Assembly (NCBI GenBank): GCA_938034975.1
Contig: CALHNI010000006.1
Location: forward strand, 7,790-71,789
Direction of reading: 5' to 3'
DNA from: Candidatus Goldiibacteriota bacterium
GTDB taxonomy: Bacteria; Oederibacteriota; PGYV01; DYJU01
Length of the DNA: 64,000 bases
Notes under the pieces: generated by a model
Seen by the model: only the letters and a program-made list of their open reading frames with translations
The model's database searches: none
Told to the model about the DNA's origin: nothing
Made by a program: the position numbers and the translations under genes
Shown: one piece after another, positions 1 through 55,489 of the stretch
Layout of the letters: each line of letters starts with the position of its first letter
Position numbering within the stretch: the first letter of the stretch is position 1

Positions 1-88
1 TTTAGGGGAAATATTTTATTTTTTTTTAATAATATTTTTCTTGTATTTTTTATACTGAAAATCTCAACCTTCTGATACGACTTTCAGA
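1..88 (+). repeat. Double-hairpin intergenic repeat, copy K (left part cut by window edge)
   Basis: Positions 30-88 align with the 3' part of copy I (aataatat..ctgaaaatc..N..gactttcaga). The imperfect hairpin at 55-88 contains the hydF stop codon (84-86). Confidence 0.6.
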
Positions 89-1289
89 ATTTTAAATACT
101 TTTTAAAAGGCAAAATAGCTCTTGGAATAAGATTATTTACATAAGCTAAAAATATTCCATAATTTATTACAGGTATATTTAATTCATTTAAAATTTTCAA
201 TCTGAACAAAATTTTATTTCTTGGCAGCATACAACCACCACACATTATCACCAAACTATATTTTTGTAATTCCTGTTTTGCTGGTAACTCTCTCGCAAAA
301 TCAAAAATTACATCTCTTAATATTTTGTTTTTAAATAATTCTGGTATCTGAACTGTTCCAATATCATTTTGTTGTCTATGGTGAGTGCATGATTCATTAA
401 TCAAAATTTTCGAGCCCGGCTTTATTTCCTTTAATCTGTTAATAGATTCAACAAATAAATTCAAATCTCCCTTTTTTCTCGCAAATAAAATAGAAAAAGA
501 TGTTAATGGCTGATCCTTGGGTAAATTCTTACTTGCTATGGAAAATGCCTGGCTGTCAGTAATAACCAGTTCTGGTCTTTTTTTTAAATTATAATATATA
601 TTCAACTGATTCTCTTTTGCTATTACAACAGAACAATTTTTATCAAGTGCATCGCGAATTGTTTCAACCTGAGGCAAAATCAATCTGCCTTTAGGAGCAG
701 CTGAATCAATAGGGACTATAAGAAATAATGTATCTCCTTCTTTAACTAAACCATCAAGCGGATTTATTTCTTTTTCTATATAATTGGATAATTTAATTAT
801 TTTTTCCCTTAATTTAACAATGTCATTTTTATCATTTATATTAACTGTGATATAATCATAATTTTGAAAAAATTTTATTTTATTATTATTGAATTCTTTG
901 TCTGCAAAGGATAAAACCACAATTAATTTTTTCCCTTTTTGTTTTAAAATATCTAAAAAATCTTTTTCAATTTGAGTTATTTCCTCATTTATTTTAGTAA
1001 CAAATATAATAATATCAGCAATCTCTAAATTACTTAATGTACTATTAATTCTTTTTTTCCCTAATTCTCCAATATCATCAAATCCAGCAGTATCTACAAA
1101 AACAACTGGTCCCAGATTACCTAATTCCATAGATTTCATTACAGGATCTGTTGTTGTGCCAGGAATATCAGAGACAATTGCAATATTATTTTCTATTATT
1201 GAGTTAAATAAACTTGATTTACCTGAATTTCTTAAACCGGTTATAACAATTCTAATTTGTTCCGCTGTAGGAGTATTAATTAATCCCAT
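84..1289 (-). CDS. hydF: [FeFe]-hydrogenase maturation GTPase HydF
   Basis: P-loop GLRNSGKSS, DTAG, and C-terminal Cys/His cluster motifs (SCTHH .. CGGC). Sits in a hydE/hydG/hydA cluster. Confidence 0.9.
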   Translation of the reverse strand: MGLINTPTAEQIRIVITGLRNSGKSSLFNSIIENNIAIVSDIPGTTTDPVMKSMELGNLGPVVFVDTAGFDDIGELGKKRINSTLSNLEIADIIIFVTKINEEITQIEKDFLDILKQKGKKLIVVLSFADKEFNNNKIKFFQNYDYITVNINDKNDIVKLREKIIKLSNYIEKEINPLDGLVKEGDTLFLIVPIDSAAPKGRLILPQVETIRDALDKNCSVVIAKENQLNIYYNLKKRPELVITDSQAFSIASKNLPKDQPLTSFSILFARKKGDLNLFVESINRLKEIKPGSKILINESCTHHRQQNDIGTVQIPELFKNKILRDVIFDFARELPAKQELQKYSLVIMCGGCMLPRNKILFRLKILNELNIPVINYGIFLAYVNNLIPRAILPFKKYLKF

Positions 1290-2310
1290 AATTTAATTCC
1301 AAATTATTATTTTTCATTGTAAAATTTATTGAAGAGCCTGTGTCAAATGATAATTCACGATTTATTTTTTTTAATTTTTGTTTCAGACATAAAATACAGG
1401 TATCAGCATTTTCATTTATGCATATCTTACCAGGATATAATAAATAATATTTTTTATATCTTGGAGGTGTTATATTTGGCATTAATACATTTGCACCAAC
1501 TTTTAATAATTTTTCTCTGCCATATGGTTCCAAAGTTCCGGAGGCGGTTGTTGCAGGAATATTAGAATAAGGCAATAAAATTCTCAATATAGCAGTTATT
1601 TTTAAAACTTTTTCAAAAGAAGGTTTATTTAAATAATTAAGCGGCGTATCCGGATGTGGAATAAAAGGTCCAATACCTATCATATCCAGATTAAGTTTAT
1701 AACATAATTCCAGATTTTTTATTAAAATTTCATCATTTTCTCCGGGCAAACCAATCATAAAACCAGAACCAGTTTCAAAATTTAATTCTTTTAAATTATA
1801 TAACATTTCAATTCTTTTCTTTAATGATAAGCCATTTTTTAAATAAGAATAAATTTTTTCATCAGCAACTTCAAATCTTATTAAATACCTGTCTACTCCG
1901 GATTCTTTTAACAATTTTAATTTTCTTTTTGTAAAATAACCACAACTTAATGTGATAGTTATATTTTTAAATTCTTTTTTCAATTTATATATAATATCGC
2001 ATAATTCATTAAACTTAAAATTTACAAATTCACCACTTTGCAAAACAAATGTTCTAAAACCTGACAAATAATTTTTTTTAATAATTTTTTTTATTTCCTG
2101 AACGCTCAAAAAATAACGCTTTATATTCCTGTTGTCCTTCCTTAAACCGCAATATAAACAATTCATTTTACATTCATTTGAAAATTCCAAAAGTGCACGA
2201 AGGAAAACTTTTTTCCCATAATTCTTTAAACAAATATATTCGGCTTCTTTTGCTAAAAAATTAAAATCACTATTATATAGTTCTTTTACATTTAAATTTA
2301 CTTTTATCAT
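1276..2310 (-). CDS. hydE: [FeFe]-hydrogenase maturase HydE (radical SAM)
   Basis: Radical SAM motif CKMNCLYC, biotin-synthase-like length, overlaps hydF and hydG. Confidence 0.88.
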   Translation of the reverse strand: MIKVNLNVKELYNSDFNFLAKEAEYICLKNYGKKVFLRALLEFSNECKMNCLYCGLRKDNRNIKRYFLSVQEIKKIIKKNYLSGFRTFVLQSGEFVNFKFNELCDIIYKLKKEFKNITITLSCGYFTKRKLKLLKESGVDRYLIRFEVADEKIYSYLKNGLSLKKRIEMLYNLKELNFETGSGFMIGLPGENDEILIKNLELCYKLNLDMIGIGPFIPHPDTPLNYLNKPSFEKVLKITAILRILLPYSNIPATTASGTLEPYGREKLLKVGANVLMPNITPPRYKKYYLLYPGKICINENADTCILCLKQKLKKINRELSFDTGSSINFTMKNNNLELNYGIN

Positions 2311-3704
2311 AAATATATATCTCTTTTACCATTATTAATTTCATCTATTATTAATTTTATTTTAATTGCCAAATTTTTTTGCATTTTAGATATTTTTTTA
2401 TAAATGAGATTTAAAGATTTTTCTTTTAATTTTACATCTGCAAAATCTTTTATATATTCATAAAAAGTAATTAATGCATTAGGTTCACAAAATTTTTGTA
2501 TTAAACCTGGTTTTGCTAAATCCATAAAATCCTTTCCTATTCTGTTTTTTCTGTAACAAGCAGTGCAAAAAGATGGTATATGTCCCATATCAACTATAGC
2601 AGATATTACCTCCTGTAAAGTTCTATGATCACCCAGAGAAAATTGTGCATCATTTGTATAATTATTATCTGCTTTTTTTGAATATGCTCCAGGATTTGTT
2701 CTGGAACCTGCTGAAATTTGCGAAACTCCGTATTTAAATAATTCATCCCGTAATTTTTCTGTCTCTCTTGTGCTCAATATAATACCAGTATATGGAACAG
2801 AAATACGTAATATAGCGACAATTTTCTTAAAATCAATATCACTAACAGGATCGGGGGGATTTACTGATAATAAAGAACCCTTAGCTGGCTCAATTCTTGG
2901 AATACTTATTGTATGTGGGCCACAGTCAAAATTTTGTTCTAAATATTTTGCATGTTGAATTAAAGCAAGAACTTCAAATTTATAATCATTAAGACCAAAT
3001 AAAGATCCTATTCCAACATCTTTAATACCTGCTCTCATTGCTCTGTCCATTACATATAATCTGTATAAATAATCTGATTTTTTCCCTTCGGGATGATAAA
3101 TTTTATATTTTTCTTCATCATATGTTTCCTGAAAGCAAATATAAGTCCCAATTTTTTCATTTTTTAATTTTTTAAAATCTTTTATTTCAAGTGGTGCAAT
3201 TTCAACATTAATTCTTCTTATATAGTTGTTATTAAAATTAATTTTATATATTAGGCGAATACTTTCTATTATATAATTTATATCTGTAACTTCTGATTCT
3301 CCCGTCAAAACAAGTAATCTTTTATGTCCTTGTTTTAATAATATTTTTACTTCATTTTCTATTTCTTCATTATTCAACTTTTTTCTGATTATTGATTTAT
3401 TATCTTTCCTAAATCCACAATAAAGACAATTATTGCTACAATGGTTTGACAAATATAATGGTGCAAATAATACCAGCCTGTTTCCATATATTTTTTCTTT
3501 AATTATTTTCGCTGTTTCTTGTATTTTTTCTACTTGTTTTTTCTGGTTAACAAGCAATAACTTTGCGACATCATATATATCTAAACCTTTAAGTTTTAAA
3601 GATCTATTTAAAATCTCATTTAATTCATTTGTTGTTGGAGATTTTTGTTTTAGTAAATTATATAGCTTTTCTTTTTCAATTATTTTATTTTTTGAATTAG
3701 CCAC
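2307..3704 (-). CDS. hydG: [FeFe]-hydrogenase maturase HydG (radical SAM, ThiH-like)
   Basis: CSNNCLYCGF radical SAM motif plus C-terminal CTACYRKNR.. cluster motif. 465 aa. Confidence 0.9.
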   Translation of the reverse strand: MANSKNKIIEKEKLYNLLKQKSPTTNELNEILNRSLKLKGLDIYDVAKLLLVNQKKQVEKIQETAKIIKEKIYGNRLVLFAPLYLSNHCSNNCLYCGFRKDNKSIIRKKLNNEEIENEVKILLKQGHKRLLVLTGESEVTDINYIIESIRLIYKINFNNNYIRRINVEIAPLEIKDFKKLKNEKIGTYICFQETYDEEKYKIYHPEGKKSDYLYRLYVMDRAMRAGIKDVGIGSLFGLNDYKFEVLALIQHAKYLEQNFDCGPHTISIPRIEPAKGSLLSVNPPDPVSDIDFKKIVAILRISVPYTGIILSTRETEKLRDELFKYGVSQISAGSRTNPGAYSKKADNNYTNDAQFSLGDHRTLQEVISAIVDMGHIPSFCTACYRKNRIGKDFMDLAKPGLIQKFCEPNALITFYEYIKDFADVKLKEKSLNLIYKKISKMQKNLAIKIKLIIDEINNGKRDIYL

Positions 3705-3735
3705 TAAATTAACTCCTTATCCTTAATACATAAAA

Positions 3736-3975
3736 TTAAAATATTATTGATTTAACTTTTAAACCTTTAATATTCCCTATTTTACCAGTTAATGCTCCTA
3801 ATTCATTTGTATTTAATTCAACAATAATATTAATAAAATTTATTTTTTTATCTTTTAAAGGTAGTCCCATCCTGCCCAGTATAATATTAGAATAATCAGA
3901 AAGCAATTTATTCAATTTGTCAATATTAGTTTTTTCATAAATAAATATGGCGATTACGCCTAATCTCCTCTCCAT
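3736..3975 (-). CDS. Small TM1266-type iron-only hydrogenase system regulator-like protein
   Basis: 79 aa, lies between hydA and hydG as in TM1266-type loci. The call rests on size, position and ACT-like sequence character. Confidence 0.6.
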   Translation of the reverse strand: MERRLGVIAIFIYEKTNIDKLNKLLSDYSNIILGRMGLPLKDKKINFINIIVELNTNELGALTGKIGNIKGLKVKSIIF

Positions 3976-4014
3976 CTGATTTACCTCCTTTGGATAAGAT
4001 TTTAGGAATACTTT

Positions 4015-5793: not shown

Positions 5794-7947
5794 TTAATTT
5801 TTATTTATTGCACCAAATTTACAGGTATTATAACATTCCCCGCATTTAACACATTTTAATTGATCTATGACATGTGGTTTTCTTTTTTCTCCTGATATTG
5901 CAGTCACCGGACATCTTAGAGCACAAGCACCACAGCCTATACATTTATCAGGATTTATTTCATATATTATTAACTCTTTACACTTACCTGTTTTACATTT
6001 TCTATCTCTTATGTGTTCTATATATTCATATTCAAAATATTTAAGTGTGGATATTACAGGATTAGGAGAACTTTGCCCTAAGCCACATAAAGATGCTTTA
6101 TTCATGGCCAAAGAAATTCTTTTTAATCTTTCTATGTCATTTTCTTCTGCTTTACCACTGCTTATTGATTTTAATATCTCTAATAATTGTTTACCACCAA
6201 TTCTACATGGAGCGCATTTTCCACATGATTCATCAACTGTAAATTGAAGATAAAACTTGGCAACATCAACCATGCAATCATCTTCATCCATGACAATCAA
6301 TCCTCCTGATCCCATCATTGAGCCAATTTTTTGCAAACTTTCATACTCTATCGGATAATCAATAAAATCTTCAGAAATTACTCCGCCAGATGGTCCGCCA
6401 CTCTGAGCAGCTTTGAATCTCTTATTATTAAATATACCACCGCCAATATTATAAATTATTTCTTTCAATGTAGTTCCCATCGCAACTTCAATTAATCCTG
6501 GATTTTTAACCTTACCAGTTAATGCAAAAACTTTTGTTCCTTTTGATTGTTCTGTTCCAATTGATGAAAACCATTCATAGCCTTTATTAATAATAATTGG
6601 TATGTTTGCCCAAGTTTCAACATTATTTATAACAGTAGGTTTTCCCCATAAGCCTTCTTTGGAAGGGAATGGAGGTCTTGGTTTTGGCATACCTCTTTTC
6701 CCTTCTATAGATGCAATTAATGCTGTTTCTTCGCCACATACAAATGCGCCAGCGCCAAGTCTAATTTCAATATCAAATGAAAAATTGGTCCCGAGAATAT
6801 TTTCACCTAATAATCCAAGTTCTTTAGCTTTATTGATTGCCATCTCTAATCTTTTTATTGCAAGTGGATATTCTGCTCTTACATATATATAACCGTTTCT
6901 AGCTCCAACTGCATATGCACATATAGTCATTCCTTCTATAACACTATATGGATCTCCTTCTAAAATACTTCTGTCCATATATGCCCCAGGATCTCCTTCA
7001 TCGGCATTACATACTATGTATTTAATATCAGAATCTGTATTTTTTGTTATCTCCCATTTAATTCCAGTAGGGAAACCCGCTCCTCCCCTTCCTCTTAAAC
7101 CTGATTTTTTTATTTCTTCTATTACGGCTTCAGGCGTCATATTAAGTAAAACTTTTTCTAATGCCATATAACCATCTCTATTTATATAATCGTTAACATT
7201 TTCAGGATCAATATAACCACTATTTTTTAAAACAACCCTTATTTGATTGTATTGTTTATTATGTTCTCTTATTTTTATATTTGGATTATCTGAAAATAAT
7301 AAAAATTCATTAATTATTGTTTTTTTTATAAAATGTGTCTCAATAATATTTTCAATCTGGTGTTCGGTAAAGTTTGAATAAATTATATTTTCGGGCAATA
7401 TTTTAATTATTGGATTTTTATTTGACATGCCTATATATTTTGTTGAGTATATTTTAATTTTTTCTTGTAAATTTTTATTTGTTATTTTTTTGATAAAAGT
7501 ATTATATATATTTTTTTTCTTATCTGGTTCCCATACAAAAATATATTTAATGTCATTTTCAAATTCATTTTTATTATTTTTAGCAAATAAATCAATTGTG
7601 GGTAAAAAAATTACATAATCATCAATTATTGTCTTTTTCATTATATGCTCTGTAATTATTTTATAAACTATATCTTCATTTAAGTAACCATATCCTACTT
7701 CTGGTAACCCTTGTATTTTGATTATAAGATTTGGTTCGCAAAAGCATAATCCAAGGCAACCTGTTTTTTTTACAGTTATTATATCTTCTAAATCTCTCTC
7801 TGAAATTTCTTTTTTCAAAATTTCATAGATTCTGTCACCACCTGCTGCAATTCCACAGGTTCCCATACTAACCAATATCTCATTCTTATTTGACTTTTTT
7901 ATCAAATCTCTCATATTTTTCAATTCTTCATATTTTAATTTAGTCAT
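5794..7947 (-). CDS. hydB: NuoF-like flavoprotein subunit HydB/HndC with N-terminal extension
   Basis: [13 protein letters not shown] site, [10 protein letters not shown], two C-terminal CxxCxxCxxxC motifs. The N-terminus has a thioredoxin-like 2Fe-2S module followed by a Cys-poor duplicate. Confidence 0.9.
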
Positions 7948-8529: not shown

Positions 8530-8732
8530 CCGTAAAAATGCGTTTTTACAGAAAAACAAATTTTTTTTATTCATCTTATTTAATAATTTTTTATTTTTAT
8601 AATGCATTTATTTTATTCACCCGTTTTTAAAATTTAAAATAAAACTAAAGTGTTGTTTTGAATATGTTATTTTTTTAAATAATATATCATTTTTCCTCCT
8701 GAAAATCGCAATCTTTTAATGCGTTTTTCAGG
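8530..8732 (+). repeat. Double-hairpin intergenic repeat, copy A
   Basis: Collapsed 5' palindrome at 8530-8551, conserved core (ttatttaataattttttatttttataatgcat..attcaccc..), 3' hairpin at 8698-8732. Confidence 0.85.
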
Positions 8733-9319: not shown

Positions 9320-9522
9320 AAAATCTAATAATATCGGCAATAAATTTTTACCAGAAATTTATTTCACCGTTTTTTCCACAGAGTTGCAGGTTTTATCCCA
9401 CCTGCTCTCAGTATGCAAAAGAATCTATAATAAAATATGGAATTATAAAAGGTATTTTAAAATCAATAAAAAGAATTTTTAAATGTAATCCTTTTCACCC
9501 TGGCGGAATAGATAAGGTATAA
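9316..9522 (+). CDS. yidD: Membrane protein insertion efficiency factor YidD
   Basis: [18 protein letters not shown] motif. Confidence 0.9.
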
Positions 9523-9546
9523 ATTTTAAAAAGGAGTATAAGTGAT

Positions 9547-13237: not shown

Positions 13238-13759
13238 ATGAAAAAAACATTGATAACAACATCGTTTTTTTTAATTGTAATCATCTTAATAATAATATTT
13301 AAAAATGAAGTTTCAAATGTTAAAAAAAAATATTCACTAATAAAAGCAGGTGACCAGGCAATAAATTTTACATTAGGTATTTATGATTCAAAAAATATAA
13401 CTTTAAATGACTTTATAGGCAAAACAAACATTATCCTTGCTTTTTTAAACGAAACACCTTTTTCCCAAAAAACAGAACTGATGCTTGAAAAATTTTATGA
13501 TGATTATTTAAAAAAAAGAAAAGATATTTTGCTTTTTTTCCTGAAAAAATCAGGAAGTTTTATCATCATAGAAGAAAAAACTGATTATACCAATTTAAAA
13601 TATAGAACTCTTTTTAAGAAAATTCCAGATGTTTATCATTTTAAAACTTTACCATCTATTTTATTTATAGACAGATATGGAATTATTAAAATTTTATATA
13701 ATGGCTATTCTCCGACATTAATACAGGACCTTATTAATCAACTGGTATTTATAAAATGA
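13238..13759 (+). CDS. Membrane-anchored thioredoxin-fold (TlpA/redoxin-like) protein lacking the CxxC motif
   Basis: N-terminal TM segment. The pattern F.L..........L.DF.GK..IL.F matches redoxins, but the CxxC position reads ETPFS. Confidence 0.5.
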   Translation: MKKTLITTSFFLIVIILIIIFKNEVSNVKKKYSLIKAGDQAINFTLGIYDSKNITLNDFIGKTNIILAFLNETPFSQKTELMLEKFYDDYLKKRKDILLFFLKKSGSFIIIEEKTDYTNLKYRTLFKKIPDVYHFKTLPSILFIDRYGIIKILYNGYSPTLIQDLINQLVFIK

Positions 13760-14109
13760 ATCTTAATTGGAAATATTTTTTTCTTCTTTTTTTATCTTTT
13801 TTAATTAGTTTTTTGGGTTTGTATTTATTAAATAATGCTTACTATAAAAAATTAGGCACTATTTCTGTTATTTCCGAAATTAATTTTTTAAAAGAAATGC
13901 CATTTCTTCTTAACAAACAAAAAATAAATACTCTTCCTATAGGACATGAAAATTTGATATTAAAAAATAATCCGTTATTTAATCTTAAAGCATCTGTAAA
14001 AGATTTCAACAATAAAAGTTCTATTTATGATGTTGATTTTATTTTAAATTATCAAGGAAAAGAACTTTTAAAATTTTCCTGTCTGATAGATGCAAGGTTG
14101 CGTAAATGA
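13756..14109 (+). CDS. Hypothetical N-terminally anchored protein
   Basis: Translationally coupled (4-nt overlap), single N-terminal hydrophobic helix, no recognisable motif. Confidence 0.5.
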   Translation: MNLNWKYFFLLFLSFLISFLGLYLLNNAYYKKLGTISVISEINFLKEMPFLLNKQKINTLPIGHENLILKNNPLFNLKASVKDFNNKSSIYDVDFILNYQGKELLKFSCLIDARLRK

Positions 14110-14597
14110 AAAAAATCCAGGTTTTATTTTTTTTATTTTTTGTTTTATTATTTATTATTCAGTATTTTTTTCTTATAAAAACACTTAAACATTTAAATTC
14201 TTTTATGCAATTTTTTTCTGTTTTTCAAAAAATAGAAAAAATCACTTCTTTTTCCTGTTCATTTGATGAAAATTTTGCTGATTTAACCAAAAATTCAAAA
14301 TGTGCAATTTTCAAAATACCTTCATTAAATGAAAAATTTTTTATTTTAAAAGATTTTTTTGATTATGTAGTTATTCTTTATCATAACGATTATCTTTTCT
14401 TTAATTTACAACCATCCAATTTAAGTATAAGAATCCCTAAATCTTTTTATATTAAAAATATACATAACTTCAATTTTAAATATTTAAATAATACCCTGGA
14501 ATTTTCCGCTTTAATAAATAATATTTATTATTCATGTGACCTTTCCATTGATACTCAATTTATCAGACTTCCTTTTTATGATAAAAGGTTTTTTTAA
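14106..14597 (+). CDS. Hypothetical N-terminally anchored protein
   Basis: 4-nt overlap with the upstream ORF, N-terminal hydrophobic helix. Confidence 0.5.
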   Translation: MKKIQVLFFLFFVLLFIIQYFFLIKTLKHLNSFMQFFSVFQKIEKITSFSCSFDENFADLTKNSKCAIFKIPSLNEKFFILKDFFDYVVILYHNDYLFFNLQPSNLSIRIPKSFYIKNIHNFNFKYLNNTLEFSALINNIYYSCDLSIDTQFIRLPFYDKRFF

Positions 14598-14921
14598 ATG
14601 AAAAGACTTTATATTATTATCTTTTTAATTATAATATCTAATAATTTTTCTGTTTTTATATATGGGCTCTGGGAAAATTATAAAGCAGATAAATACATTG
14701 AAAAAACCAAAATTAAATTTCTTGAAATTTCGGCTCTTACACTTACCAAACATATCTTAGACGATATTACTTTTAATGATGTTTTGACACAGGAATTTTT
14801 TTATAAAGGAAATAAAATTATTTTAATTATAAAAAAAATAAAAAAGGATTTAATTGCAGTAGATGTCAGTATAATAAGCAATAAAAAAAATTACTTTTCA
14901 TCATTTATAAGCAAATATTAA
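14598..14921 (+). CDS. Hypothetical N-terminally anchored protein
   Basis: Starts immediately after the previous stop codon, N-terminal hydrophobic helix. Confidence 0.5.
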   Translation: MKRLYIIIFLIIISNNFSVFIYGLWENYKADKYIEKTKIKFLEISALTLTKHILDDITFNDVLTQEFFYKGNKIILIIKKIKKDLIAVDVSIISNKKNYFSSFISKY

Positions 14922-19081: not shown

Positions 19082-19209
19082 CCTCAGAAATATTTTATAA
19101 AAAAATATTATTCAAATAAATTTTTAAAATAACACTTGTGTTTTATTTTAAATTAAAATGATAAAAATATTTTATTCCGTAAAAATGCGTTTTCTAATAC
19201 ATTTTTACG
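19082..19209 (-). repeat. Double-hairpin intergenic repeat, copy B (truncated, inverted)
   Basis: Carries ccgtaaaaatgcg-ttttctaa-tacatttttacg at 19177-19209 and the core segment ttaaaataacacttgtgttttattttaaatt. It interrupts the usual rpmA-obg adjacency. Confidence 0.7.
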
Positions 19210-19340
19210 ATTTATTATAACAAAATTTCATTCCCTTAAAAATAAAAACGAATATTTTTGTTTTTAGTAGTATTTTCTTATATGGATTTGGTAAATATAA
19301 TTTTTTTAAAAAACCTGCTTGGGGATATTATCTTTTAAAT

Positions 19341-20092: not shown

Positions 20093-20108
20093 TTATTTTT
20101 TTTATAAA

Positions 20109-20316
20109 CGTAAAAACACATTATAAAATGCGTTTTTACGGAAATATAAAATATTTTTGGCTTTTTTGTTTAATAATTTTTTATTTTTATAGCACATTAC
20201 TTTGATTCACCTGTTTTTTAACTTTAAAAGCAAGTATACTCTTAAAATTCTTATTTGTTTATAAACCTTTTTATATTTTCTCTTTTTCCCTTAAAAACGC
20301 TAATGCGTTTTTCAGG
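20109..20316 (+). repeat. Double-hairpin intergenic repeat, copy C (same subfamily as F)
   Basis: 5' hairpin at 20109-20141, 3' hairpin at 20289-20316. Core is nearly identical to copy F (..atagcacattactttgattcacctgtttttta..). Confidence 0.85.
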
Positions 20317-20346
20317 TTATAATATTTAATTTATATAAAAATAATT

Positions 20347-32113: not shown

Positions 32114-32206
32114 TTATACCTCCTTTTTAAAATATTAGTATTGTGAAAAGTTTTTTATCCTTTTCACTTAAAAATCCTTTTATTCATATACTTTGGTTGC
32201 CTTTTG

Positions 32207-32318
32207 TTCCCTTTTTGTCAAAGTGGGATTTAGGGGGATTTACATACATCCATTTTCTTTTTCTCGCTTTCTTTTAATTTAAAATCTCCCCTAACCCCTC
32301 TTTATTAAAGATGGGGAA
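32207..32318. repeat. G/C-rich imperfect inverted repeat element
   Basis: Left arm at 32207-32241 (ttccctttttgtcaaagtgggatttagggggattt), right arm at 32281-32318 (aaaatctcccctaacccctctttattaaagatggggaa). The arms are roughly 70% complementary by eye. Confidence 0.6.
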
Positions 32319-32431
32319 ATGTATATTATTTTCAATACTTTTAGTATATATTTTAATCTCTGCCTTCTTTCTTTTTCATAGAACTTTTACATTATCAAAA
32401 TATTTTTATTCTAAAATTTAAAACCTAATTT

Positions 32432-32561: not shown

Positions 32562-32646
32562 TTTAAAATTAAATAATTTTTTATCTAATATTAATTGATT
32601 TATTATCTTTAATCGCATTTCAAAATATATAAATATATATATAATA

Positions 32647-32831
32647 CCTGAGAATCTCGTTATTAGAAAATTGTGATCTTCAGGATAAAAAAATAATTAA
32701 AATATTATTAAAAACTTATAAATTTTTAAAACAACACTTTTTTTTTATCAAAAAAAATTGTGAATAAAAATAACGCATTATAAATTCAAAAATTATTAAA
32801 TAAAAATGCTTTTTCTAACACGTTTTTACGG
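32647..32831 (-). repeat. Double-hairpin intergenic repeat, copy D (inverted orientation)
   Basis: cctgagaatctcg..gtgatcttcagg hairpin at 32647-32684. Core tgtgaataaaaataacgcattataaa. Ends ..ttagaaaa(rc)..cgtttttacgg at 32831. Confidence 0.8.
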
Positions 32832-32838
32832 AATATCT

Positions 32839-35284: not shown

Positions 35285-35333
35285 AATTCTACCTTTTATC
35301 TTTTGTTAAAAAAATTTCTGTTATTACAATTAT

Positions 35334-35526
35334 CCGTAAAAACGCGTAAAAAAACGAGTTTTTATGGAAAAATAAAATATCTTTATCCTTTTTATTTAAT
35401 ATATTTTTATAATGCATTCTTTTTATTCACCAGTTTTTCTATTTAAATAAAATATAAGTATTATTTTAATTTGTTTAATAATATTTTTTTTCTGAAAAGT
35501 AAATATTTTCTATTGCACTTTTCAGG
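35334..35526 (+). repeat. Double-hairpin intergenic repeat, copy E
   Basis: 5' hairpin ccgtaaaaacgcg-taaaaaaa-cgagtttttatgg starts at 35334. The 3' hairpin ends at 35526, 1 nt from the stop codon of the upstream TPR gene. Confidence 0.85.
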
Positions 35527-35527
35527 A

Positions 35528-37714
35528 TTATATATAAGAAACCCTGTCAGTTGTTTTCTTTTTATCTTCTTTAATTTCTTCTTTTCCGTTGCCTTTTAAT
35601 TTTTTAAGTTCATCTAATTTAGCTTTTGCTTCTATATTATCTGCATCTTCAGAAATTATCTTATTAAGTATTTGTTCGGCTTCATAAAATAATCCCTGTT
35701 TCATAAATATTTCTGCTGATATAACAGTTGAAAAAATTACTTTTATATTTTTTTCTTCTGATTTTACTTCCTGTTTTTTCCTTTCTTCTTCCTGCTTTTT
35801 CTTTTCCTCTTCCTGTTTTTTCTTTTCCTCTTCCTGCTTTTTCCTTTCCTCTTCCTGCTTTTTCTTTTCTTCTTCCTGTTTTTTCCTTTCCTCTTCCTGT
35901 TTTTTCTTTTCTTCTTCCTGCTTTTTTCTTTCCTCTTCCTGTTTTTTCTTTTCCTCTTCCTGTTGTTTCTTTACCTGAGAATCCACAGATGAAATCCCTG
36001 CATATTGAGAATAAACTTTATTAAGTTTTGTTTTTATTGATTCATTTAAAGGTTCTATTGCAAGGGCTTTTTGATACATTTCTATTGCCTGTTCAAAATC
36101 TCCTGTTTTTACAAAACCCTCTGCCATAGCAATTAATGCAGGAACATCTTCCTGAACATCTGATTGAGAAACAGGAGCAGATGATATTACTGTTTCTTTT
36201 ATTTCAACTGGGCTTTCCAATATTATTTTGTCATGTGGTAAATCAGGTAATTTGAATTCTTCTGTTTTAAAAGGTTCATCTTTTATAGTTTGATGTTTTT
36301 TAGCATCAAAAATATTATCCTGAATTTGTGGTAATTTTACTGATTCAATTTTTTCTGGTTTTATTTTAATATCTTTTTTTAATTCAAAAACTTGCTTTTC
36401 TTTTACTGGTTCTGCTTTTGATTCTATAGTAAGTTTTTTAGCCCTTTCTACTATCTTGGGATGAGCGGGTTCCAATTCTTCTGCCATTTTTAAAAATTCG
36501 CGTTCTTTATTTTCCATCTTTTCTTTACTATAAATTTCTGATATTTTTATATAAACATCCGCTGCCTGTCTTTTTTTATTTTGCAAAGCCAAAACCTCTG
36601 CAAGTTTTTGTAAAATATCAATATTTTCCGGTTCTTTGCTTAAAATTTTATTTAAAATGTATTCTGCTTTGTCAAATTCTTTCTTTTTTGAATAAATATT
36701 TACAGCAACCATAAATTTGGCATTTGCTTCTTTTATTAATCCTTTTTGAAGATATATATCACCTAAAAGTTCCTGGGCTTCAGTATTCTCTTCATCTAAT
36801 TTAACGACTTTTGTTAAAATAGATATTGCCTGGTCTAACTGTCCTTTTTCTTTATTTATTTTGGCGGATAAGAGCAAACCCTCTGTATGATTTGCTTTAA
36901 ATTTTATTAAAACATCCAATTCTTTTTTGGCTTCATCAAATTCCTTTTTTACAAAAAGCACAGCTCCTTTAAAAAAATGAGCCTCTATACTTTTGGCTTC
37001 AATTGCTTTCTGGGCAAAAAAATCTACCTTTTCTATGTTTTTTTTAGCCCAGTAATACTCACATAAAAAAATATATTCCCGTTTTGTATCAGATTCACGT
37101 CCTTCTCTTTCATAAACTTCTGCGATTTTTTCTCTCATTTCAATATTGTCTGGTTGCAGTTCAATAATCTTCTGATAAACAGGAAGTGCTTTTTTATAAA
37201 TTCTGTTTTTATGATATATTTCTGCAACCTTATATAAAAACTTTAATGCCTCTTCTTTCATTCCTTTTTCCGCATATAATTCACCAATTTTCTGATACGT
37301 ATCAAAACTATCCGGATTTATTTGCAATATTTCTTTATATACATCAATTGCTTTATCAATTTCACCGTTTTCTATGAATTTTTCAGCTTCTGCATTTTTC
37401 TTTATCAGTATCTGCTTTTTTCTGTCTGCTTCAGGTAATTTATTAGAATCCAGTTTTGCAATTTTTTTGTAAATGATATTTGCTTTATCAGAAAGTCCCT
37501 GTTTGATATATGCTTCTGCTGTTAAAATATATGACTGATATGCAAGTGCATCTTCTCCTTTTTTGGCATATACATCACCAAGCATATTATGTATGTTATA
37601 ATCAGTAGGGTCCAGTATTATTAATTTTTTGTATTCCATAATTGCTTTATCCCATTTCCCTTCCTGCGTATAAATCATTGCCATTTTAAGAATGTCTTTT
37701 TTATTTTCAGCCAT
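35528..37714 (-). CDS. TPR protein with internal charged heptad (KKKQEEE)n tract
   Basis: N-terminal and C-terminal TPR units, about 10 heptads of [KR]KKQEEE. Sits upstream of the ExeA-like ATPase (MshN/MshM-like pairing). Confidence 0.8.
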   Translation of the reverse strand: MAENKKDILKMAMIYTQEGKWDKAIMEYKKLIILDPTDYNIHNMLGDVYAKKGEDALAYQSYILTAEAYIKQGLSDKANIIYKKIAKLDSNKLPEADRKKQILIKKNAEAEKFIENGEIDKAIDVYKEILQINPDSFDTYQKIGELYAEKGMKEEALKFLYKVAEIYHKNRIYKKALPVYQKIIELQPDNIEMREKIAEVYEREGRESDTKREYIFLCEYYWAKKNIEKVDFFAQKAIEAKSIEAHFFKGAVLFVKKEFDEAKKELDVLIKFKANHTEGLLLSAKINKEKGQLDQAISILTKVVKLDEENTEAQELLGDIYLQKGLIKEANAKFMVAVNIYSKKKEFDKAEYILNKILSKEPENIDILQKLAEVLALQNKKRQAADVYIKISEIYSKEKMENKEREFLKMAEELEPAHPKIVERAKKLTIESKAEPVKEKQVFELKKDIKIKPEKIESVKLPQIQDNIFDAKKHQTIKDEPFKTEEFKLPDLPHDKIILESPVEIKETVISSAPVSQSDVQEDVPALIAMAEGFVKTGDFEQAIEMYQKALAIEPLNESIKTKLNKVYSQYAGISSVDSQVKKQQEEEKKKQEEERKKQEEEKKKQEEERKKQEEEKKKQEEERKKQEEEKKKQEEEKKKQEEERKKQEVKSEEKNIKVIFSTVISAEIFMKQGLFYEAEQILNKIISEDADNIEAKAKLDELKKLKGNGKEEIKEDKKKTTDRVSYI
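35768..35971. repeat. 21-bp tandem repeat (~10 units) encoding [KR]KKQEEE heptads
   Basis: Plus-strand unit cttcctg(c/t)tttttc(c/t)tttc(c/t)t is repeated head to tail. Confidence 0.85.
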
Positions 37715-37797
37715 AATTCAAAATACCTTTCAAAATATTTACATATTTTAAATTAATTATAATATACATCCCTGAAAATCGCAATAGTGAATTACAT

Positions 37798-38029
37798 CCA
37801 TAAAAACGCGTTAGAAAATTCGTTTTTACTGGAATATAAAATATTTTTATCTTTTTTTTGTTTAATAATTTTTTATTTTTATAGCACATTACTTTAATTC
37901 ACCTGTTTTTTAATTTTAAAAACAAGGACACTCTTAAAATTCTTATTTGTTTTATTTGTTTATAAACCTTTTTTATATTTTCTCTTTTCTTCTGGAAATC
38001 GCATTTATTGAAAGATTGCGATTTTCAGA
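37798..38029 (+). repeat. Double-hairpin intergenic repeat, copy F (preceded by an extra half hairpin at 37771-37785)
   Basis: 5' hairpin at 37798-37832, core nearly identical to copy C, 3' hairpin tctggaaatcgca..tgcgattttcaga at 37991-38029. Confidence 0.85.
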
Positions 38030-38170
38030 AGAAAAAATACAAAAATAATATATTATTTAAAAAAATAAAATATTTAAAACAATACTTGAACTTTATTTTA
38101 AATTAAAAAACAGGTGAATAAAAGAATACATTATAAAAATAAAAATTTATTAAATAAAAATATTTTTAGT
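38030..38170 (-). repeat. Double-hairpin repeat, partial inverted copy F2
   Basis: The core is in reverse orientation (..aaaacaatacttgaactttattttaaattaaaaaacaggtgaataaaagaatacattataaaaataaaaatttattaaataa) and shares the 37991-38029 hairpin with F. It lacks the CCGTAAAAACGC hairpin. Confidence 0.7.
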
Positions 38171-39229: not shown

Positions 39230-39236
39230 TTATTTT

Positions 39237-39387
39237 CTGAAAATTGCAACAGGGTATTGCAATCTTCAGGATAAAAAAATATTTAAAACAACACTTGTGA
39301 TTTTATCTTAAATAAAAAATGGTGAATAAAAATAATAAAAACATTTTACTTTTCCGTAAAAACGCGTTTCTTATGCGTTTTTACCGG
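39237..39387 (-). repeat. Double-hairpin intergenic repeat, copy G (short, inverted)
   Basis: ctgaaaattgcaa..ttgcaatcttcagg at 39237-39270, core ..acacttgtgattttatcttaaataaaaaatggtgaataaaa, and ccgtaaaaacgcg-tttcttat-gcgtttttaccgg at 39354-39387. Confidence 0.8.
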
Positions 39388-39401
39388 AGTATTTTTTAAA
39401 G

Positions 39402-49503: not shown

Positions 49504-49505
49504 TA

Positions 49506-51052: not shown

Positions 51053-51228
51053 CCCTAAAAACGCGTTTTTACGGAAAAACAAAATTTTTTTATTATTTTT
51101 ATTTAATTTTAAAATGCATTACTTTTATTCACTAGTTTTTTTAATTTAAAATAAAACATGTGGGTTGTTTTAAATTTTTTTGTTTAATATTATTTTAAAT
51201 TACAATTTTCAATTGCACAGTTTTCAGG
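51053..51228 (+). repeat. Double-hairpin intergenic repeat, copy H
   Basis: Collapsed 22-bp palindrome ccctaaaaacgcgtttttacgg at 51053-51074, conserved core, degenerate 3' hairpin ending ..gttttcagg at 51228. Confidence 0.8.
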
Positions 51229-51307
51229 TATAATTTTAATTTTAAAAAATGTATAATAGATTTTTAAAATTCAATTATACTACAAAGAAGTGCCAATATT
51301 ATAATAA

Positions 51308-51393
51308 GTGTCGCCGCCATATTTTTTAGGCGTGAGCCATTTTCATGGCAAATGATATAAGGGGGTATATCTAAGAAAAGTAGGCGGCGACAT
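51308..51393 (-). ncRNA. Candidate structured small RNA (unclassified)
   Basis: 11-bp GC-rich closing stem (GTGTCGCCGCC / GGCGGCGACAT) encloses two hairpins. On the minus strand these are GAUAUA-[CCCCCU]-UAUAUC and GCCAU-[GAAA]-AUGGC (a GNRA loop). It is a GC island in AT-rich DNA. Confidence 0.35.
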
Positions 51394-51444
51394 CTATGTC
51401 ATTTTTTTTGTCAATTATCATATATTTTTTTAAATATCATTTTA

Positions 51445-51473: not shown

Positions 51474-51757
51474 ATGTTTTTTAATATGAAAATATTTTCC
51501 ATAAATTGGGTTTTATTTTGCCTTTATTTAGTAAAATAAAATTGAACATTTATTGTCATAATTGTTTTTACGTAAAAATTTACTATGTGTCATTTGAATG
51601 GTAATTTATTTATTTTATGGATTTTTATTAGTATTAGTTTTTATAAAAATATAAAAAACTATTTAGAAAATGCGTTTTTATGGATAAAACATAAGTATTT
51701 TTTTAAAATTTTAATTTGTATAATTAATATATTTCATTCTTAATTTTTCAAAAAAAT

Positions 51758-52099: not shown

Positions 52100-52147
52100 T
52101 TCTTTTTTTTTAAAACTTATTTTACTTTTAAAGACCTTTTTTATCAT

Positions 52148-52597: not shown

Positions 52598-52600
52598 ATT

Positions 52601-55357
52601 TTATTTTATCACAACTATTTTTGTAAAATATTTTTCATCATCTACTTTCAATAATCCGTAATATACACCGCTTAAAACTTCTCTGCCCGAATCATTTTTT
52701 CCATCCCACATATACTTATATAACATTCCGCCTGTTTGATCTTCTCTGCGTAATATTTCTTTTACTTTTCTTCCTATAATATCGTAAATAATAAGAGACA
52801 CTTTAGAATTTTCTGGCAAATAATATTGAATTGTTGTTCCACCAGAATATGGCGAAAAAGGATTCGGAAAATTATAAAAACTTGATTTTATATCTCTTTT
52901 TACAATATTTATAATATCTGAAACATAAGGAAACTTATTATCTTTTGATTCAATATATACAATTGCACCATTTAATTTTTGTAAAACTATATCAAGTGAT
53001 TTTTCTATTGATATATTAAAAGTTCCTTCCTGGGCATTATCTCTTATGTCAATATAAAATTTAAAAGTTTTTTCTTCATTAAAATTAATAATACTGTTTA
53101 TCGGGCAATAAATTGTTTTTGAATTATTCCATTGTGTTTCACTTAATATATTTGGCCCTTCTCTGATAATAACTTTTTCAATTTTCAAATTATAATCATC
53201 ACTTATAGTTAATGTTACTCCTTCTGCATTATAAAGTGGTCCACCGCCATTTGGATTTTCTATTTTAAGGTCAATGACATTTATATTTTTTGCACCGGCA
53301 CTGATTGTATCAAAATCGTATTTAATATAATCTGTTTTGGCTGAGTTTCCATAAGCAGTAACTGTTACAGGAACCACAACCGAAGCAGTTGAAAGAATAT
53401 TATACCTGTCAATTGCATTTAATTCATATACTCCTGGTCTTAATATTCTTATATAAAAAATCTGTGTCCCTGATATCAAATTTTTATCTAAATCATAAAT
53501 AACATCTATTGACGGTGTTGCTTCTATGCCAATTTTATTTGTTGCAGGTGTATAATCCTGCCAGGTTATTTCATCAACACAACGAACATAAAGTGGTATT
53601 ATCTGCCCTGCTTCCTGTGGAACAGGTGTCCCTATAAAGCCAGGATACGCATAAATTGGGGTTTGCCCTGGCGCTAATAAAATTAAACTTATCAATGGTG
53701 TGTTTGTAGGGGTTATTGTCTGGGTTACTGTCTGGGTTATTGTTGGCGTTATTGTTGATGTTATTGTAAAAGTAATTGATGGTGTAATAGTTGCAGTTAT
53801 TGTCAGAGTTGATGTTTGCGTTATTGTTGCTGTTATTGTATTAGTTGCTGTCTGTGTGATTGTCTGGGTTATTGTATTTGTTACCGTATTTGTAACTGTC
53901 TGGGTAATTGTCGGTGTTATTGTCTGCGTTATTGTCCGGGTTATGGTTTGCGTTGTTGTTTCTGTTGCTGTTTGCGTCACGGTTTGCGTAATTGTCTGTG
54001 TTTTGGTTAGAGTTATTGTTTGTGTTATCGTTACAGTTATAGTTTCAGTTATCGTCTTTGTTACTGTCTCAGTTATTGTTTGTGTTGCTGTCTGTGTTAT
54101 CGTTTGTGTTATTGTATTGGTTATTGTCGGTGTTACCGTTGCAGTTATTGTTTCTGTTATTGTCTGTGTTACTGTTTGCGTTATTGTTTCTGTTATTGTC
54201 TGCGTTGCTGTCTGCGTTATGGTTTGCGTTGCTGTTTGAGTTATCGTCTGTGTTATCGTTGCAGTTATAGTTTCAGTTATTGTTGTAGTTGTTGTTTGCG
54301 TTATTGTTAATGTAATTGATGATGTTATTGTTGCTGTTATGCTTGGAGTAACTGTCGGTGTTATTATTATAACTATCTGTGTATATCCATTTGGTGTTGT
54401 TATCTTTGCATCTGTTAAATCATTTAAATAACTTCTATAATGCTTCTCTCCTATATCTCCTATTGCATTAAATTTTATTATGTCAAAATTTGTCCCTGAA
54501 AATACATTCCATGGATTATAAATAACTTCTATCCTATCGCTAACCTGGTTTATTCCTGTCCCTAAATTTGTGCTTAATCCACCGGTTATTACTACCCCTG
54601 ATGGTATATTTATTATTACCTTTGTTATGTCTCCTATCCCTGCTGCTGTTACTCTATATGTATATTGCTTTTCTTCTCCACTTACAGCACTTACAGGCTC
54701 TATATACCCATTTGCTGCTGGCGTATATGTATTTGTTACTGTTATCGTTGCTGTTATGGTCTGTGTTATTGTTTCTGTTATTGTTTGCGTTATTGTTTGA
54801 GTTATTGTTTGCGTTGCTGTCTGCGTTATGGTTTGTGTTATTGTATTGGTTATTGTCAGTGTTACCGTTGTAGTTATTGTTTCTGTTATAGTCTGTGTTA
54901 CTGTCTCAGTTATTGTTTGCGTTGCTGTCTGCGTCACGGTCTGAGTAATTGTCTGTGTTACTGTCAGCGTTACTGTTTGCGTTATAGTTGCAGTTATGGT
55001 ATCAGTCATCGTCTTAGTTGCTGTCTGCGTTGCTGTTTCTGTTATAGTTTGTGTTATTGTCTCTGTTATTGTATTAGTTATAGTGCCTGTAAATGTCTCA
55101 GAAATAGTTTCTGTTATTGTTGTGGTAATGGTCGGAGTTATTGTCTGCGTTATCGTTTCTGTTTCTGTTTCTGTCTCTGTTATTGTTTGCGTTGCCGTGT
55201 CAGTTATTGCATACAAATTTTCTATGGCTATAAATCCTAAAAAAAATAAAAAAACACTTATTTTTATCCGTAAAAATGCATTAGAAAACGCGTTTTTAGG
55301 GAAAAACAAAATTTTTTTATTGTTTTTATTTAATAAATTTTTATTTTTATAAAGCAT
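52601..55357 (-). CDS. Secreted Thr-rich (T-x-T-Q/E)n repeat protein with Ig-like domains and a C-terminal FlgD-Ig/T9SS-type sorting-like domain
   Basis: Signal-peptide h-region ISVFLFFLGFIAI. Two TxTx tracts at aa 51-211 and 332-553. C-terminus ..FYNFPNPFSP..GVYYGLLKVDD..KIVVIK. Start uncertain: ATG 55357 or in-frame TTG 55309, both inside repeat I. Confidence 0.8.
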   Translation of the reverse strand: MLYKNKNLLNKNNKKILFFPKNAFSNAFLRIKISVFLFFLGFIAIENLYAITDTATQTITETETETETITQTITPTITTTITETISETFTGTITNTITETITQTITETATQTATKTMTDTITATITQTVTLTVTQTITQTVTQTATQTITETVTQTITETITTTVTLTITNTITQTITQTATQTITQTITQTITETITQTITATITVTNTYTPAANGYIEPVSAVSGEEKQYTYRVTAAGIGDITKVIINIPSGVVITGGLSTNLGTGINQVSDRIEVIYNPWNVFSGTNFDIIKFNAIGDIGEKHYRSYLNDLTDAKITTPNGYTQIVIIITPTVTPSITATITSSITLTITQTTTTTITETITATITQTITQTATQTITQTATQTITETITQTVTQTITETITATVTPTITNTITQTITQTATQTITETVTKTITETITVTITQTITLTKTQTITQTVTQTATETTTQTITRTITQTITPTITQTVTNTVTNTITQTITQTATNTITATITQTSTLTITATITPSITFTITSTITPTITQTVTQTITPTNTPLISLILLAPGQTPIYAYPGFIGTPVPQEAGQIIPLYVRCVDEITWQDYTPATNKIGIEATPSIDVIYDLDKNLISGTQIFYIRILRPGVYELNAIDRYNILSTASVVVPVTVTAYGNSAKTDYIKYDFDTISAGAKNINVIDLKIENPNGGGPLYNAEGVTLTISDDYNLKIEKVIIREGPNILSETQWNNSKTIYCPINSIINFNEEKTFKFYIDIRDNAQEGTFNISIEKSLDIVLQKLNGAIVYIESKDNKFPYVSDIINIVKRDIKSSFYNFPNPFSPYSGGTTIQYYLPENSKVSLIIYDIIGRKVKEILRREDQTGGMLYKYMWDGKNDSGREVLSGVYYGLLKVDDEKYFTKIVVIK
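53699..54364. repeat. 12-nt-periodic coding repeat tract 2 ((ACN ATN ACN CAR)n type)
   Basis: Encodes aa 332-553 of the Thr-rich protein and generates long spurious ORFs in other frames. Confidence 0.85.
54725..55207. repeat. 12-nt-periodic coding repeat tract 1
   Basis: Encodes aa 51-211 of the Thr-rich protein. Confidence 0.85.
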
Positions 55358-55489
55358 TACTTTTATTCACCCGTTTTTTTTATTTAAAATAAAGAACAAG
55401 TATTGTTTTAAATATTTATTGTTTTCAATAATATATTTTTTGTTTTTTTCACCTGAAAATCGCAATCTTTAAATAATACGATTTTCAGA
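55268..55489 (+). repeat. Double-hairpin intergenic repeat, copy I
   Basis: 5' hairpin ccgtaaaaatgca-ttagaaaa-cgcgtttttaggg at 55268-55301, conserved core, 3' hairpin cctgaaaatcgcaat..acgattttcaga at 55452-55489. Confidence 0.85.

Follow-up and report, generated by a model that had tools for sequence, protein, structure and literature searches.

The 64,000-nucleotide stretch of DNA analyzed here (positions 7,790 to 71,789 of contig CALHNI010000006.1, assembly GCA_938034975.1, Candidatus Goldiibacteriota bacterium; hereafter, the window) has a G+C content of about 27% and a uniform negative GC skew, and its genes, among them hydF, a nuoE-like gene, rpmH, mnmE, rpmA and obg, ubiA, xerC next to topA, and a gene for a 918-aa secreted protein with Thr/Glu/Ile repeats, lie mostly on the minus strand. 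The nearest named homologs of UbiA, Obg and XerC come from metagenome-assembled genomes of Candidatus Goldbacteria/Goldiibacteriota (61-71% identity). The long spacers between these genes are populated by copies of a non-coding repeat in which two related hairpins, denoted HP1 and HP2, are joined by an AT-rich core. Considering the copies themselves, their junctions and the orthologous sites in relatives, this repeat is, on balance, probably a lineage-specific family of non-autonomous elements that resemble MITEs (miniature transposable elements with inverted repeats) and were inserted by staggered cuts.

The existence of an interspersed repeat, with 11 copies or fragments, was proposed in an earlier note on this DNA, and all 11 were recovered here. 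In the window, the left arm of HP1, CCGTAAAAACGC, is found 15 times with at most one mismatch, compared to the expectation of 0.13, and the HP2 arm CCTGAAAATCGCAAT nine times with at most two mismatches, compared to 0.18; the same places are grouped by a direct-repeat finder. A profile made from the copies and run with nhmmer returns exactly the 11 listed places and no other (E-values from 7e-51 to 6e-8). The leftmost of these, previously described as one copy spanning positions 1-88, consists of the end of a further copy (1-9; A0, with copies lettered as in Table 1) and of a 3' fragment only (10-88), which brings the number of copies or fragments to 12 per 64 kb. Their summed length is about 1.9 kb, or 3% of the window. 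Ten of the 11 copies are intergenic, seven have the plus and four the minus orientation, and the complete ones are 176-232 bp long and contain no open reading frame (ORF) of transposase size. The claim that the repeat occupies nearly every long spacer holds as well: copies are present at 9 of the 11 true intergenic spacers of at least 225 bp once rpmH, yidD and a small ORF at 3705-4014 are set aside as genes. Two stretches that look like gaps, 3705-4014 and 9320-9546, hold such small genes and are not empty spacers.

The three-part layout that had been proposed for the repeat is visible in the alignments. In the orientation of the element, HP1 is a 12-bp stem (CCGTAAAAACGC/GCGTTTTTACGG) with a loop of about 10 nt, RTTAGAAAAY, that looks like a partial duplication of the arm, and is followed by an A-rich stretch, the core (...TTTAATAATTTTTTATTTTTATAATGCATTACTTTTATTCACCNGTTTTTT...AAGTGTTGTTTTAAAT...), a T-rich stretch and HP2 (CCTGAAAATCGC(AAT)/(ATT)GCGATTTTCAGG), the loop of which is variable. 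The AT-rich segment that joins the hairpins spans about 140 bp and is without coding capacity of its own for a transposase. A short, loop-less HP1 of 22 nt is found in copies B (8530) and J (51053), and the loop TTAGAAAA is shared by the copies at 19082, 32647, 37798 and 55268 and by the relic at 51663; the letters under which copies with the recurrent loop or without a loop had been listed do not match the copies that actually carry each form. The hairpins are the best-conserved parts of the element, with 87-90% column identity compared to about 75% pairwise identity overall. Single hairpins fold better than shuffled sequence (z-scores from -2.6 to -7.3), and the complete copy K folds into HP1, a closed central domain and HP2 (z = -5.1), as MITE transcripts usually do. 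In the consensus, the two outer arms (5' CCGTAAAAACGC ... GCGATTTTCAGG 3') match at 9 of 12 positions and thus constitute imperfect terminal inverted repeats. The hairpins had been described as subterminal; they are located 0-2 nt from the junctions defined by empty sites and thus appear to be terminal.

Relatives of three degrees of similarity were compared with the window, namely SRR27730023 (contigs L108, L111 and L118; UbiA 88%, Obg 86% and XerC 86% identical), GCA_020722985.1 and GCA_973628015.1 (L112, L113 and L119; Obg and XerC 82% identical), and JGI 3300005573 with related samples (L105-L107; UbiA 79% identical). Three orthologous sites, those of copies I, G/H and C, are empty in the SRR27730023 relative (L108 and L111), and the characterization of the family as a mobile-type, non-coding interspersed repeat is borne out by these sites. 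At site I, the relative reads ...ttcaatCATTTTtaaagtttac... and the window reads ...ttcaatTATTTT[CTGAAAATTGC...ACCGGAG]TATTTTttaaagtttac...; the empty site fits in length (23/23 nt, 21 identical) only when one copy of a 6-bp repeat is removed. At site G/H, a block of about 420 bp between the gene for a tetratricopeptide repeat (TPR) protein and ubiA corresponds to about 45 bp of unrelated spacer in L108. A look-up of this TPR protein, the gene of which is flanked by copies F and G, returned no record. At site C, the ATG of obg is preceded in the rpmA-obg spacer of the relative by a terminator, a TGgTATAAT promoter and GAGG, and in the window copy C is inserted between the promoter and GAGG. The extent of this copy, previously given as 19082-19209, is corrected to 19099-19210, and the word 'ttctgagg', which had been taken for a remnant of its HP2, belongs to the native obg ribosome-binding region, being found also in the empty site of the relative. 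Because the conserved proteins of the two organisms are only 86-88% identical, copies that differ from each other by 15-35% can have been inserted after the split.

Over 64.8 kb of relatives, the profile yields one weak match (L105, 7451-7515, E=3e-4), compared to the 12 copies in the 64 kb of the window, in agreement with the genus-specific distribution of prokaryotic MITEs. Of the latter, 97.4% are genus-specific, and 56.5% of prokaryotic genomes carry MITEs (PMC11602168). The spot of the weak match holds the related hairpins CTCTGAAAATCGCGATAGCGATTTTCAGAG and CCCCAAAATCGC...GCGATTTTGGGG together with the word TTATTCACC; the hairpin motif is therefore older than this repeat family. The strains represented by L105 (7370-7680) and L107 (1-300), which have identical UbiA, differ upstream of the enolase gene, and the point of divergence falls inside the HP2-related hairpin, between CCCCAAAATCGC... 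and CGATTTTGGGG, with only the right arm retained in L107. Three samples yielded short contigs of the same organism, which match the window with 99.6-100% identity and carry copies I, K and A; no difference in occupancy was found among these same-species contigs from other samples, in which copy K is present.

Evidence on the mode of insertion comes from the junctions, with the element ends set by alignment to the consensus. Exact direct repeats abut both ends in five of the seven complete copies (TTATAA at D, ATTAT at F, TTTAT at K, TATT at E and TATTTT at I). Among mismatched pairs of left and right flanks, 3 of 42 have a repeat of at least 4 bp, and none of about 7000 valid random re-pairings, in which no flank is joined to its own partner (from 20000 shuffles), reaches five; a stricter test with fixed 5-mer flanks was also run. 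Copy B, which occupies the spacer that divides the divergent nuoE-like and rpmH genes, has no recognizable flanking repeat. The sequence of the repeat differs from one copy to another, and with respect to the element it may read either way (TTTAT at K, AAAATA at I), as expected of target duplications and not of a fixed cleavage or target motif. The left flanks (AATA, ATAA, TTAT, ACAT, TTAT, ACTA and TATT) are not conserved, and no conserved tetranucleotide, such as the earlier note had proposed to look for, precedes the left end (TTAT is present at only 2-3 of 9 left ends). Hence the junctions favor integration through a staggered cut, as would be performed by a DDE (Asp-Asp-Glu) transposase acting in trans. 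Hairpin-recognized single-strand transposition, the mechanism proposed previously by analogy with the palindrome-associated transposable elements (PATEs) of the IS200/IS605 family and with repetitive extragenic palindromes (REPs) mobilized by REP-associated tyrosine transposases (RAYTs), is not supported, as the 4-6 bp flanking repeats argue against it.

The copies are old, as indicated by their pairwise identity of 64-85% (the best pairs are K-H with 85% and D-G with 84%), and a recent burst of amplification was rejected on the same grounds. A "nearly identical" subfamily had been reported; the D/G pair (20109/37798) is 84% identical over 216 nt and so is not nearly identical, although D, G and A0 do share a variant right half. 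Decay is manifest in short forms of HP1, core deletions, solo arms, and tail-to-tail and tandem fragments. For example, the copy at 38030-38170 (H) has no hairpin of its own and adjoins HP2 of the copy at 37798-38029. A similar series of decayed forms has been described for the bacterial MITE families QMITE and Chunjie (PMC10969869).

No transposase, Y1 enzyme or RAYT was detected by Pfam scans among the 56 window ORFs of at least 100 aa, in agreement with the earlier note, and the only recombinase in the window is a housekeeping-type XerC encoded beside topA, an arrangement that is conserved in L119, which lacks the element. The view that the repeat does not belong to a recognized family also stands. 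In Rfam, the window yields just tmRNA and two tRNAs at the gathering threshold, and copies K and B have no match at E-values up to 1; blastn searches against PLSDB plasmids and GenBank phages returned nothing; and the element motifs retrieved only unrelated primers from the literature. A scan of a genome collection with the loose core pattern ATTCACCNGTTTTTN{2,5}TTTAAA gave only single chance matches in unrelated genomes, none with a hairpin, a metagenome scan with a 29-nt core pattern gave one chance match, and a scan of viral contigs with HP2 gave nothing. Judged against Rfam, plasmids, phages and the literature, the family thus appears to be new but of a common kind.

Several other candidates were considered and rejected. 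Matches to HP1 in four high-GC phage contigs are unrelated to the element and represent an operator-like palindrome beside a regulator gene; in the IMG/VR contigs L114-L117, an exact CGTAAAAACGC-N12-GCGTTTTTACG palindrome, which looks like an operator, lies upstream of a regulator-like gene. An RNA gene or riboswitch was dismissed given that there is no Rfam match and that the copies occur in both orientations relative to their neighbors, and a built-in promoter or terminator because no promoter-like or terminator-like site is common to the copies and the native promoters lie outside of them. The core word TTATTCACC is one base off TTATNCACA, the DnaA-box consensus, and in copy E the exact word TTATTCACA is present (32759-32767); a DnaA-box reading was rejected since the canonical TTATNCACA is found 5 times in comparison with 4.0 expected.

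A recent review lists as defining features of MITEs a length below 500 bp, 4-30 bp terminal inverted repeats, direct repeats that become blurred as copies age, a high AT content, insertion into AT-rich intergenic DNA, transcripts with stem-loops, and many truncated or clustered members (PMC10969869); all of these are found in this element. In particular, bacterial MITEs, such as QMITE1/2 of Coxiella, Chunjie of Geobacter and the Correia elements of Neisseria, are likewise AT-rich elements of less than 500 bp without coding capacity that lie mostly between genes and end in inverted repeats. Their younger copies have short flanking direct repeats, their transcripts can fold into stem-loops, and their families include many truncated or internally deleted members and clustered or nested copies with a lineage-specific distribution (PMC10969869, PMC11602168). 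Unlike typical MITEs, however, each end of the present element is itself palindromic, with a stem of 12-15 bp, and pairs within its own hairpin better than it matches the opposite end; furthermore, no sequence similarity to any described family was found in Rfam, plasmids, phages or the literature, and no parent insertion sequence was found in the window. The bcr1-bcr3 repeats of Bacillus cereus, the mobility of which has been linked to a flanking TTTAT motif (PMC6199540, PMC6542083), are also small (about 100-400 bp), interspersed, mostly chromosomal and predicted to form secondary structure, and flanks that resemble this motif are seen at some of the present copies (TTTAT at K, ATTAT at F, TTATAA at D and ATAAA at C), whereas E has TATT, I has TATTTT, and B and J have no repeat. 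In contrast to the present family, bcr1-bcr3 are confined to the B. cereus group, in another phylum, whereas here the flanking words vary and at least one site requires a true duplication; the likeness is by description only.

Several further types of repeats share individual features with the element. IS200/IS605 PATEs and REPs, including the paired REPs (REPINs) associated with RAYTs, are non-coding, dense and extragenic and have related hairpin-forming palindromes at their ends, but differ from the element in that the latter has flanking duplications, terminal hairpins and a long conserved core, and shows no conserved target tetranucleotide, GTAG head or, among its few copies, strand bias; the units here start with CCG or CCT instead of the GTAG/GTGG-type head that marks the 20-40 nt palindromic units of REPs. 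Rickettsia palindromic elements are small palindromic repeats of an AT-rich genome that are able to enter coding regions and thereby protein, and are typically located in frame within genes, in contrast to the mostly intergenic copies in the window, where copy K replaces a gene start and adds no internal segment. Finally, insertion sequences of the IS1380 family, as well as ISH3 and IS1634, have CC termini and produce 4-6 bp duplications. The CC start, GG end and 4-6 bp AT-rich flanks of the element are reminiscent of the IS1380 type, a likeness by description that serves as a lead only.

Table 1. Copies, fragments and relics of the repeat in the window (E, nhmmer E-value).
Feature	Coordinates	Strand	Description	Evidence and context
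A0	1..9	+	Last HP2 bases of a further copy, D/G subfamily	Bulk lies left of the window; same-genome contig L120 reaches 52 nt past the window start and reads ...TATAAACCTTTTTTATATTTTCTTTTTTCCCATGAAAAACGCTAATGCGTTTTTTAGGGG
A	10..88	+	3' fragment (model positions 146-224), HP2 at 55-88	E=6e-8; directly after A0
B	8530..8732	+	Full length; HP1 8530-8551 (short, loop-less), HP2 8698-8732	E=4e-44
C	19099..19210	-	HP1 and part of core; core center and HP2 missing	Between obg promoter and obg ribosome-binding site; site empty in relative L111
D	20108..20316	+	Full length, D/G subfamily	E=2e-42; flanks TTATAA at 20102-20107 and 20317-20322
E	32647..32831	-	HP1 right arm and next spacer partly deleted	E=3e-29; flanks TATT at 32832-32835 and 32643-32646 (element orientation)
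F	35334..35526	+	Full length	E=1e-34; flanks ATTAT at 35329-35333 and 35527-35531
G	37798..38029	+	Full length, D/G subfamily; HP1 37798-37832, HP2 37989-38031	E=8e-40; site empty in L108
H	38030..38170	-	Core only, no HP1; tail to tail with G, sharing HP2 of G	nhmmer match 38170-37989 overlaps HP2 of G
I	39237..39389	-	Both hairpins; 35 nt of core lost between short TTTTATT repeats	E=1e-26; flanks TATTTT at 39231-39236 and 39390-39395
J	51053..51228	+	Short HP1, 11-nt core deletion, HP2 left arm lost	E=2e-30
K	55268..55489	+	Nearest to consensus	E=7e-51; flanks TTTAT at 55263-55267 and 55490-55494; also in second assembly L124
Solo HP2 left arm	37771..37785	+	CCTGAAAATCGCAAT, 12 nt before copy G	Sequence
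HP1 relic	51653..51683	+	Degenerate left arm, loop TTAGAAAA, intact right arm GCGTTTTTATGG	Sequence

Some copies bear on the structure of neighboring genes. Copy K, which had been described as overlapping a gene end, does overlap the 918-aa gene, but lies inside the ancestral 5' coding region, between the ancestral start (ATG 55553) and the signal-peptide region, and not merely at the end. In the relative L119 (10879-11200), the gene after xerC starts 216 bp downstream with MLNKIFIDLKKNKIKIFILS..., and at the copy K site (55268-55553, minus strand) the window retains the promoter TTGAAA-16-TATAAT, a ribosome-binding site and the ATG at 55553, the frame of which now stops after 14 codons. The 918-aa ORF starts with the ATG at 55357 on the antisense strand of copy K, 9 nt after GGGTGA, and continues to the signal-peptide region ...IKISVFLFFLGFIAIENLYA, with K providing the first approximately 32 codons (55357 to 55268); gene calling on an independent assembly picks the same start. 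As read from the sequence, copy K splits the original 5' part of the coding region, and its antisense strand furnishes a new ribosome-binding site and ATG. The same arrangement of GGTGA, 8-9 nt and ATG, with a frame open through HP1 (M[HCL]YKNKKLLNK...FFRKNAF..FLR), is present antisense to the core in copies B, D, F, G and K (8610-8625, 20195-20215, 35415-35432, 37895-37915 and 55355-55375), and is lost in J, which is frameshifted, and in E and H, which are without the ATG. We regard it as an accident of the A-rich strand that was used once, rather than a designed function. At the left end of the window, the hydF stop codon (TGA, 84-86, minus strand) falls inside the right arm of HP2 of copy A, so that this insertion set the present C-terminus of the protein. 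Copy C sits in the obg leader. In a relative with Obg 82% identical (L112, 8250-8700; also L113, 1110-1560), the rpmA-obg spacer is 518 bp long, GC-richer and structured-looking, with no Rfam match at the gathering threshold, and in another relative it is 106 bp long.

The history of the family can be tentatively outlined as follows. A transposase encoded elsewhere in the genome, probably of the DDE type and acting in trans, would bind the repeated end motifs and, through staggered cuts, insert the element into AT-rich intergenic DNA, leaving 4-6 bp duplications; the inner hairpin arms might serve as extra binding sites or structural features. The family would have spread after the lineage split from the nearest sampled relative. 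Point mutations, together with internal deletions between short repeats, would subsequently have eroded it, with new copies landing beside or within older ones.

Several observations weigh against this scenario, beginning with the flanks. The lengths of the flanking repeats vary (4, 5, 5, 6 and 6), and copies B and J are without such a repeat. At site K, the relative L119 (82%) already reads ATAAAATAAAA, so the TTTAT pair at this site could be native sequence rather than a duplication, and no duplication is needed at site C to align the joined flanks with the empty site, though the right end of C is lost. These data bear on an alternative under which the element was inserted in the manner of site-specific recombination at an AT-rich TTTAT/ATAAA-like motif, as suggested for bcr1 of B. 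cereus, with the flanking repeats being in part pre-existing target sequence. A resemblance to TTTAT or its complement is indeed seen in the flanks at K (TTTAT), at F (ATTAT), at D (TTATAA) and at C (ATAAA), and the relative has a tandem ATAAA-ATAAA at site K. Nevertheless, we consider this explanation improbable because the empty site can be reconciled with site I only through a true 6-bp duplication, TATT at E and TATTTT at I are different words and B and J have no repeat, TTTAT-like words are common in DNA with about 85% A+T, and the sole recombinase candidate is the housekeeping-type xerC by topA, which is conserved in an element-free relative.

The properties of the ends also count against insertion of a MITE-like element by staggered cuts, as does the fact that no autonomous parent element or transposase was found within the window. 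The terminal inverted repeats are weak, given that the match of 9/12 in the consensus drops to just 6/12 in copy K, whereas stem cells across the copies are in standard pairs in 92% of the cases for HP1 and in 86.5% for HP2. The HP1 and HP2 consensus sequences differ at three pairs, with both arms changed in each, so that each end is more self-complementary than the two ends are alike. In HP2, two-sided changes that keep the pairing are found in 5 cells (pair 9 is T-A, A-T or G-C; pair 10, C-G or T-A; pair 1, C-G or T-A), a number reached by 9 of 500 shuffles, and the covariation score is reached by 3 of 500, although related sequences can beat shuffles without any structure; HP1 covariation is no better than in shuffles. 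Of the co-varying hairpin arms anticipated in the earlier note, then, the self-complementarity and some two-sided changes in HP2 are observed, but not significant covariation in HP1. Simple protein-binding repeats do not predict the pairing-preserving changes in HP2. An enzyme of the HUH (histidine-hydrophobe-histidine)/Y1 type, either IS200/IS605 TnpA as for PATEs or a RAYT as for REPIN-like elements, that recognizes the end hairpins and moves the element as a single strand would be in keeping with this self-complementarity and with the two-sided changes, as well as with the stable hairpins of related sequence at both ends, the solo half-hairpin at 37771-37785, the break inside a related hairpin that distinguishes L105 from L107, and the persistence of the related hairpin CTGAAAATCGC...GCGATTTTCAG in a relative with UbiA 79% identical. 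This explanation is nonetheless unlikely, above all in view of the copy-specific 4-6 bp repeats flanking 5 of 7 complete copies, since such systems make none. In addition, the hairpins abut the junctions, whereas in the IS200/IS605 family, as known from IS608, the left-end hairpins are located about 20 nt inside the element end. Moreover, the left flanks are not conserved, the 7:4 orientation reveals no strand bias, although in a window of uniform GC skew these copies are too few to decide, there is no GTAG-type head, the 140-bp core is conserved, unlike in REPs, no Y1 gene is present within the window, and the HP2 signal could stem from relatedness alone. Self-complementarity of the ends is thus the one feature that favors the idea that the folded hairpin matters, and leaves a small door open for a structural role; it would also be explained by quasi-palindrome correction during replication or by the inner arms functioning as second binding sites.

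Two other explanations were considered. The copies might be kept for a cellular function, as stabilizing 5' or 3' hairpins, protein-binding palindromes, a portable ribosome-binding site with an ATG, or a DnaA-box-like TTATTCACC, with transposition being ancient or irrelevant. Compatible with such a function are the conservation of the hairpins, the identity of the best-conserved core block, in antisense, with the GGTGA-ATG arrangement and open frame of five copies, the use of the ATG of copy K as the start of the 918-aa gene in an independent assembly, and the location of copy C in the obg leader. However, both the orientation of the copies and the side of a gene on which they lie vary, the ATG or the frame is gone from 3 of the 8 copies with a core, the copies have no promoter-like or terminator-like signal in common, the relative does without a copy at three orthologous sites, and TTATNCACA is not enriched, all of which makes this explanation very unlikely. 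It is also conceivable, if rather doubtful, that the end hairpins matter more than sequence, either because the element was moved by an undescribed enzyme that recognizes the fold and makes staggered cuts, or because selection retained the hairpins, once inserted, as structural modules of RNA or DNA; under both versions, genes could acquire new N-termini from the antisense core, which would act as a portable ribosome-binding site and ATG reading out through HP1, as seen at copy K. Thus, insertion of a MITE-like, non-autonomous element by staggered cuts remains the explanation that we prefer.

Several features of the window outside the repeat family deserve mention. The segment at 51247-51410 (plus strand), between copy J and the tmRNA gene, is GC-richer and contains a long-range stem (GTCGCCGCC...GGCGGCGAC) followed by a small hairpin and a T-run, and preceded by TGTATAAT; it may be a small RNA, and has no Rfam match at the gathering threshold. 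Short palindromes rich in C and in G, ctcccctaacccctc...gatggggaaa and ccctctcccc...gggcgagggg, are met repeatedly in spacers of the lineage (window 32150-32330; L107 45-95; L105 20480-20560 and 20940-20993) and may represent a second small repeat family. Within genes, a 12-nt periodic repeat of about 60 units, TETITQTI-like, is found at 53671-54400 in the gene for the 918-aa protein, and a 21-nt repeat of about 10 units at 35720-36013 in the TPR protein gene. At 13238-14921 (plus strand), mnmE is followed by a row of four ORFs (173, 117, 163 and 107 aa), which have no Pfam match at E-values up to 0.01, with the exception of one weak AhpC/TSA match.

For genome annotation, these observations imply that about 3% of this stretch, and most of its long spacers, are repeat copies and not regulatory DNA, and that copies have shaped the start of the gene for the 918-aa secreted protein, the stop codon of hydF and the leader of obg. 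It is unusual for an element to combine target duplications with ends that are each a self-complementary hairpin. The family is a record of transposon activity in a lineage that is related to Candidatus Goldbacteria and has hardly been studied, and its copies can be used as lineage-specific markers.

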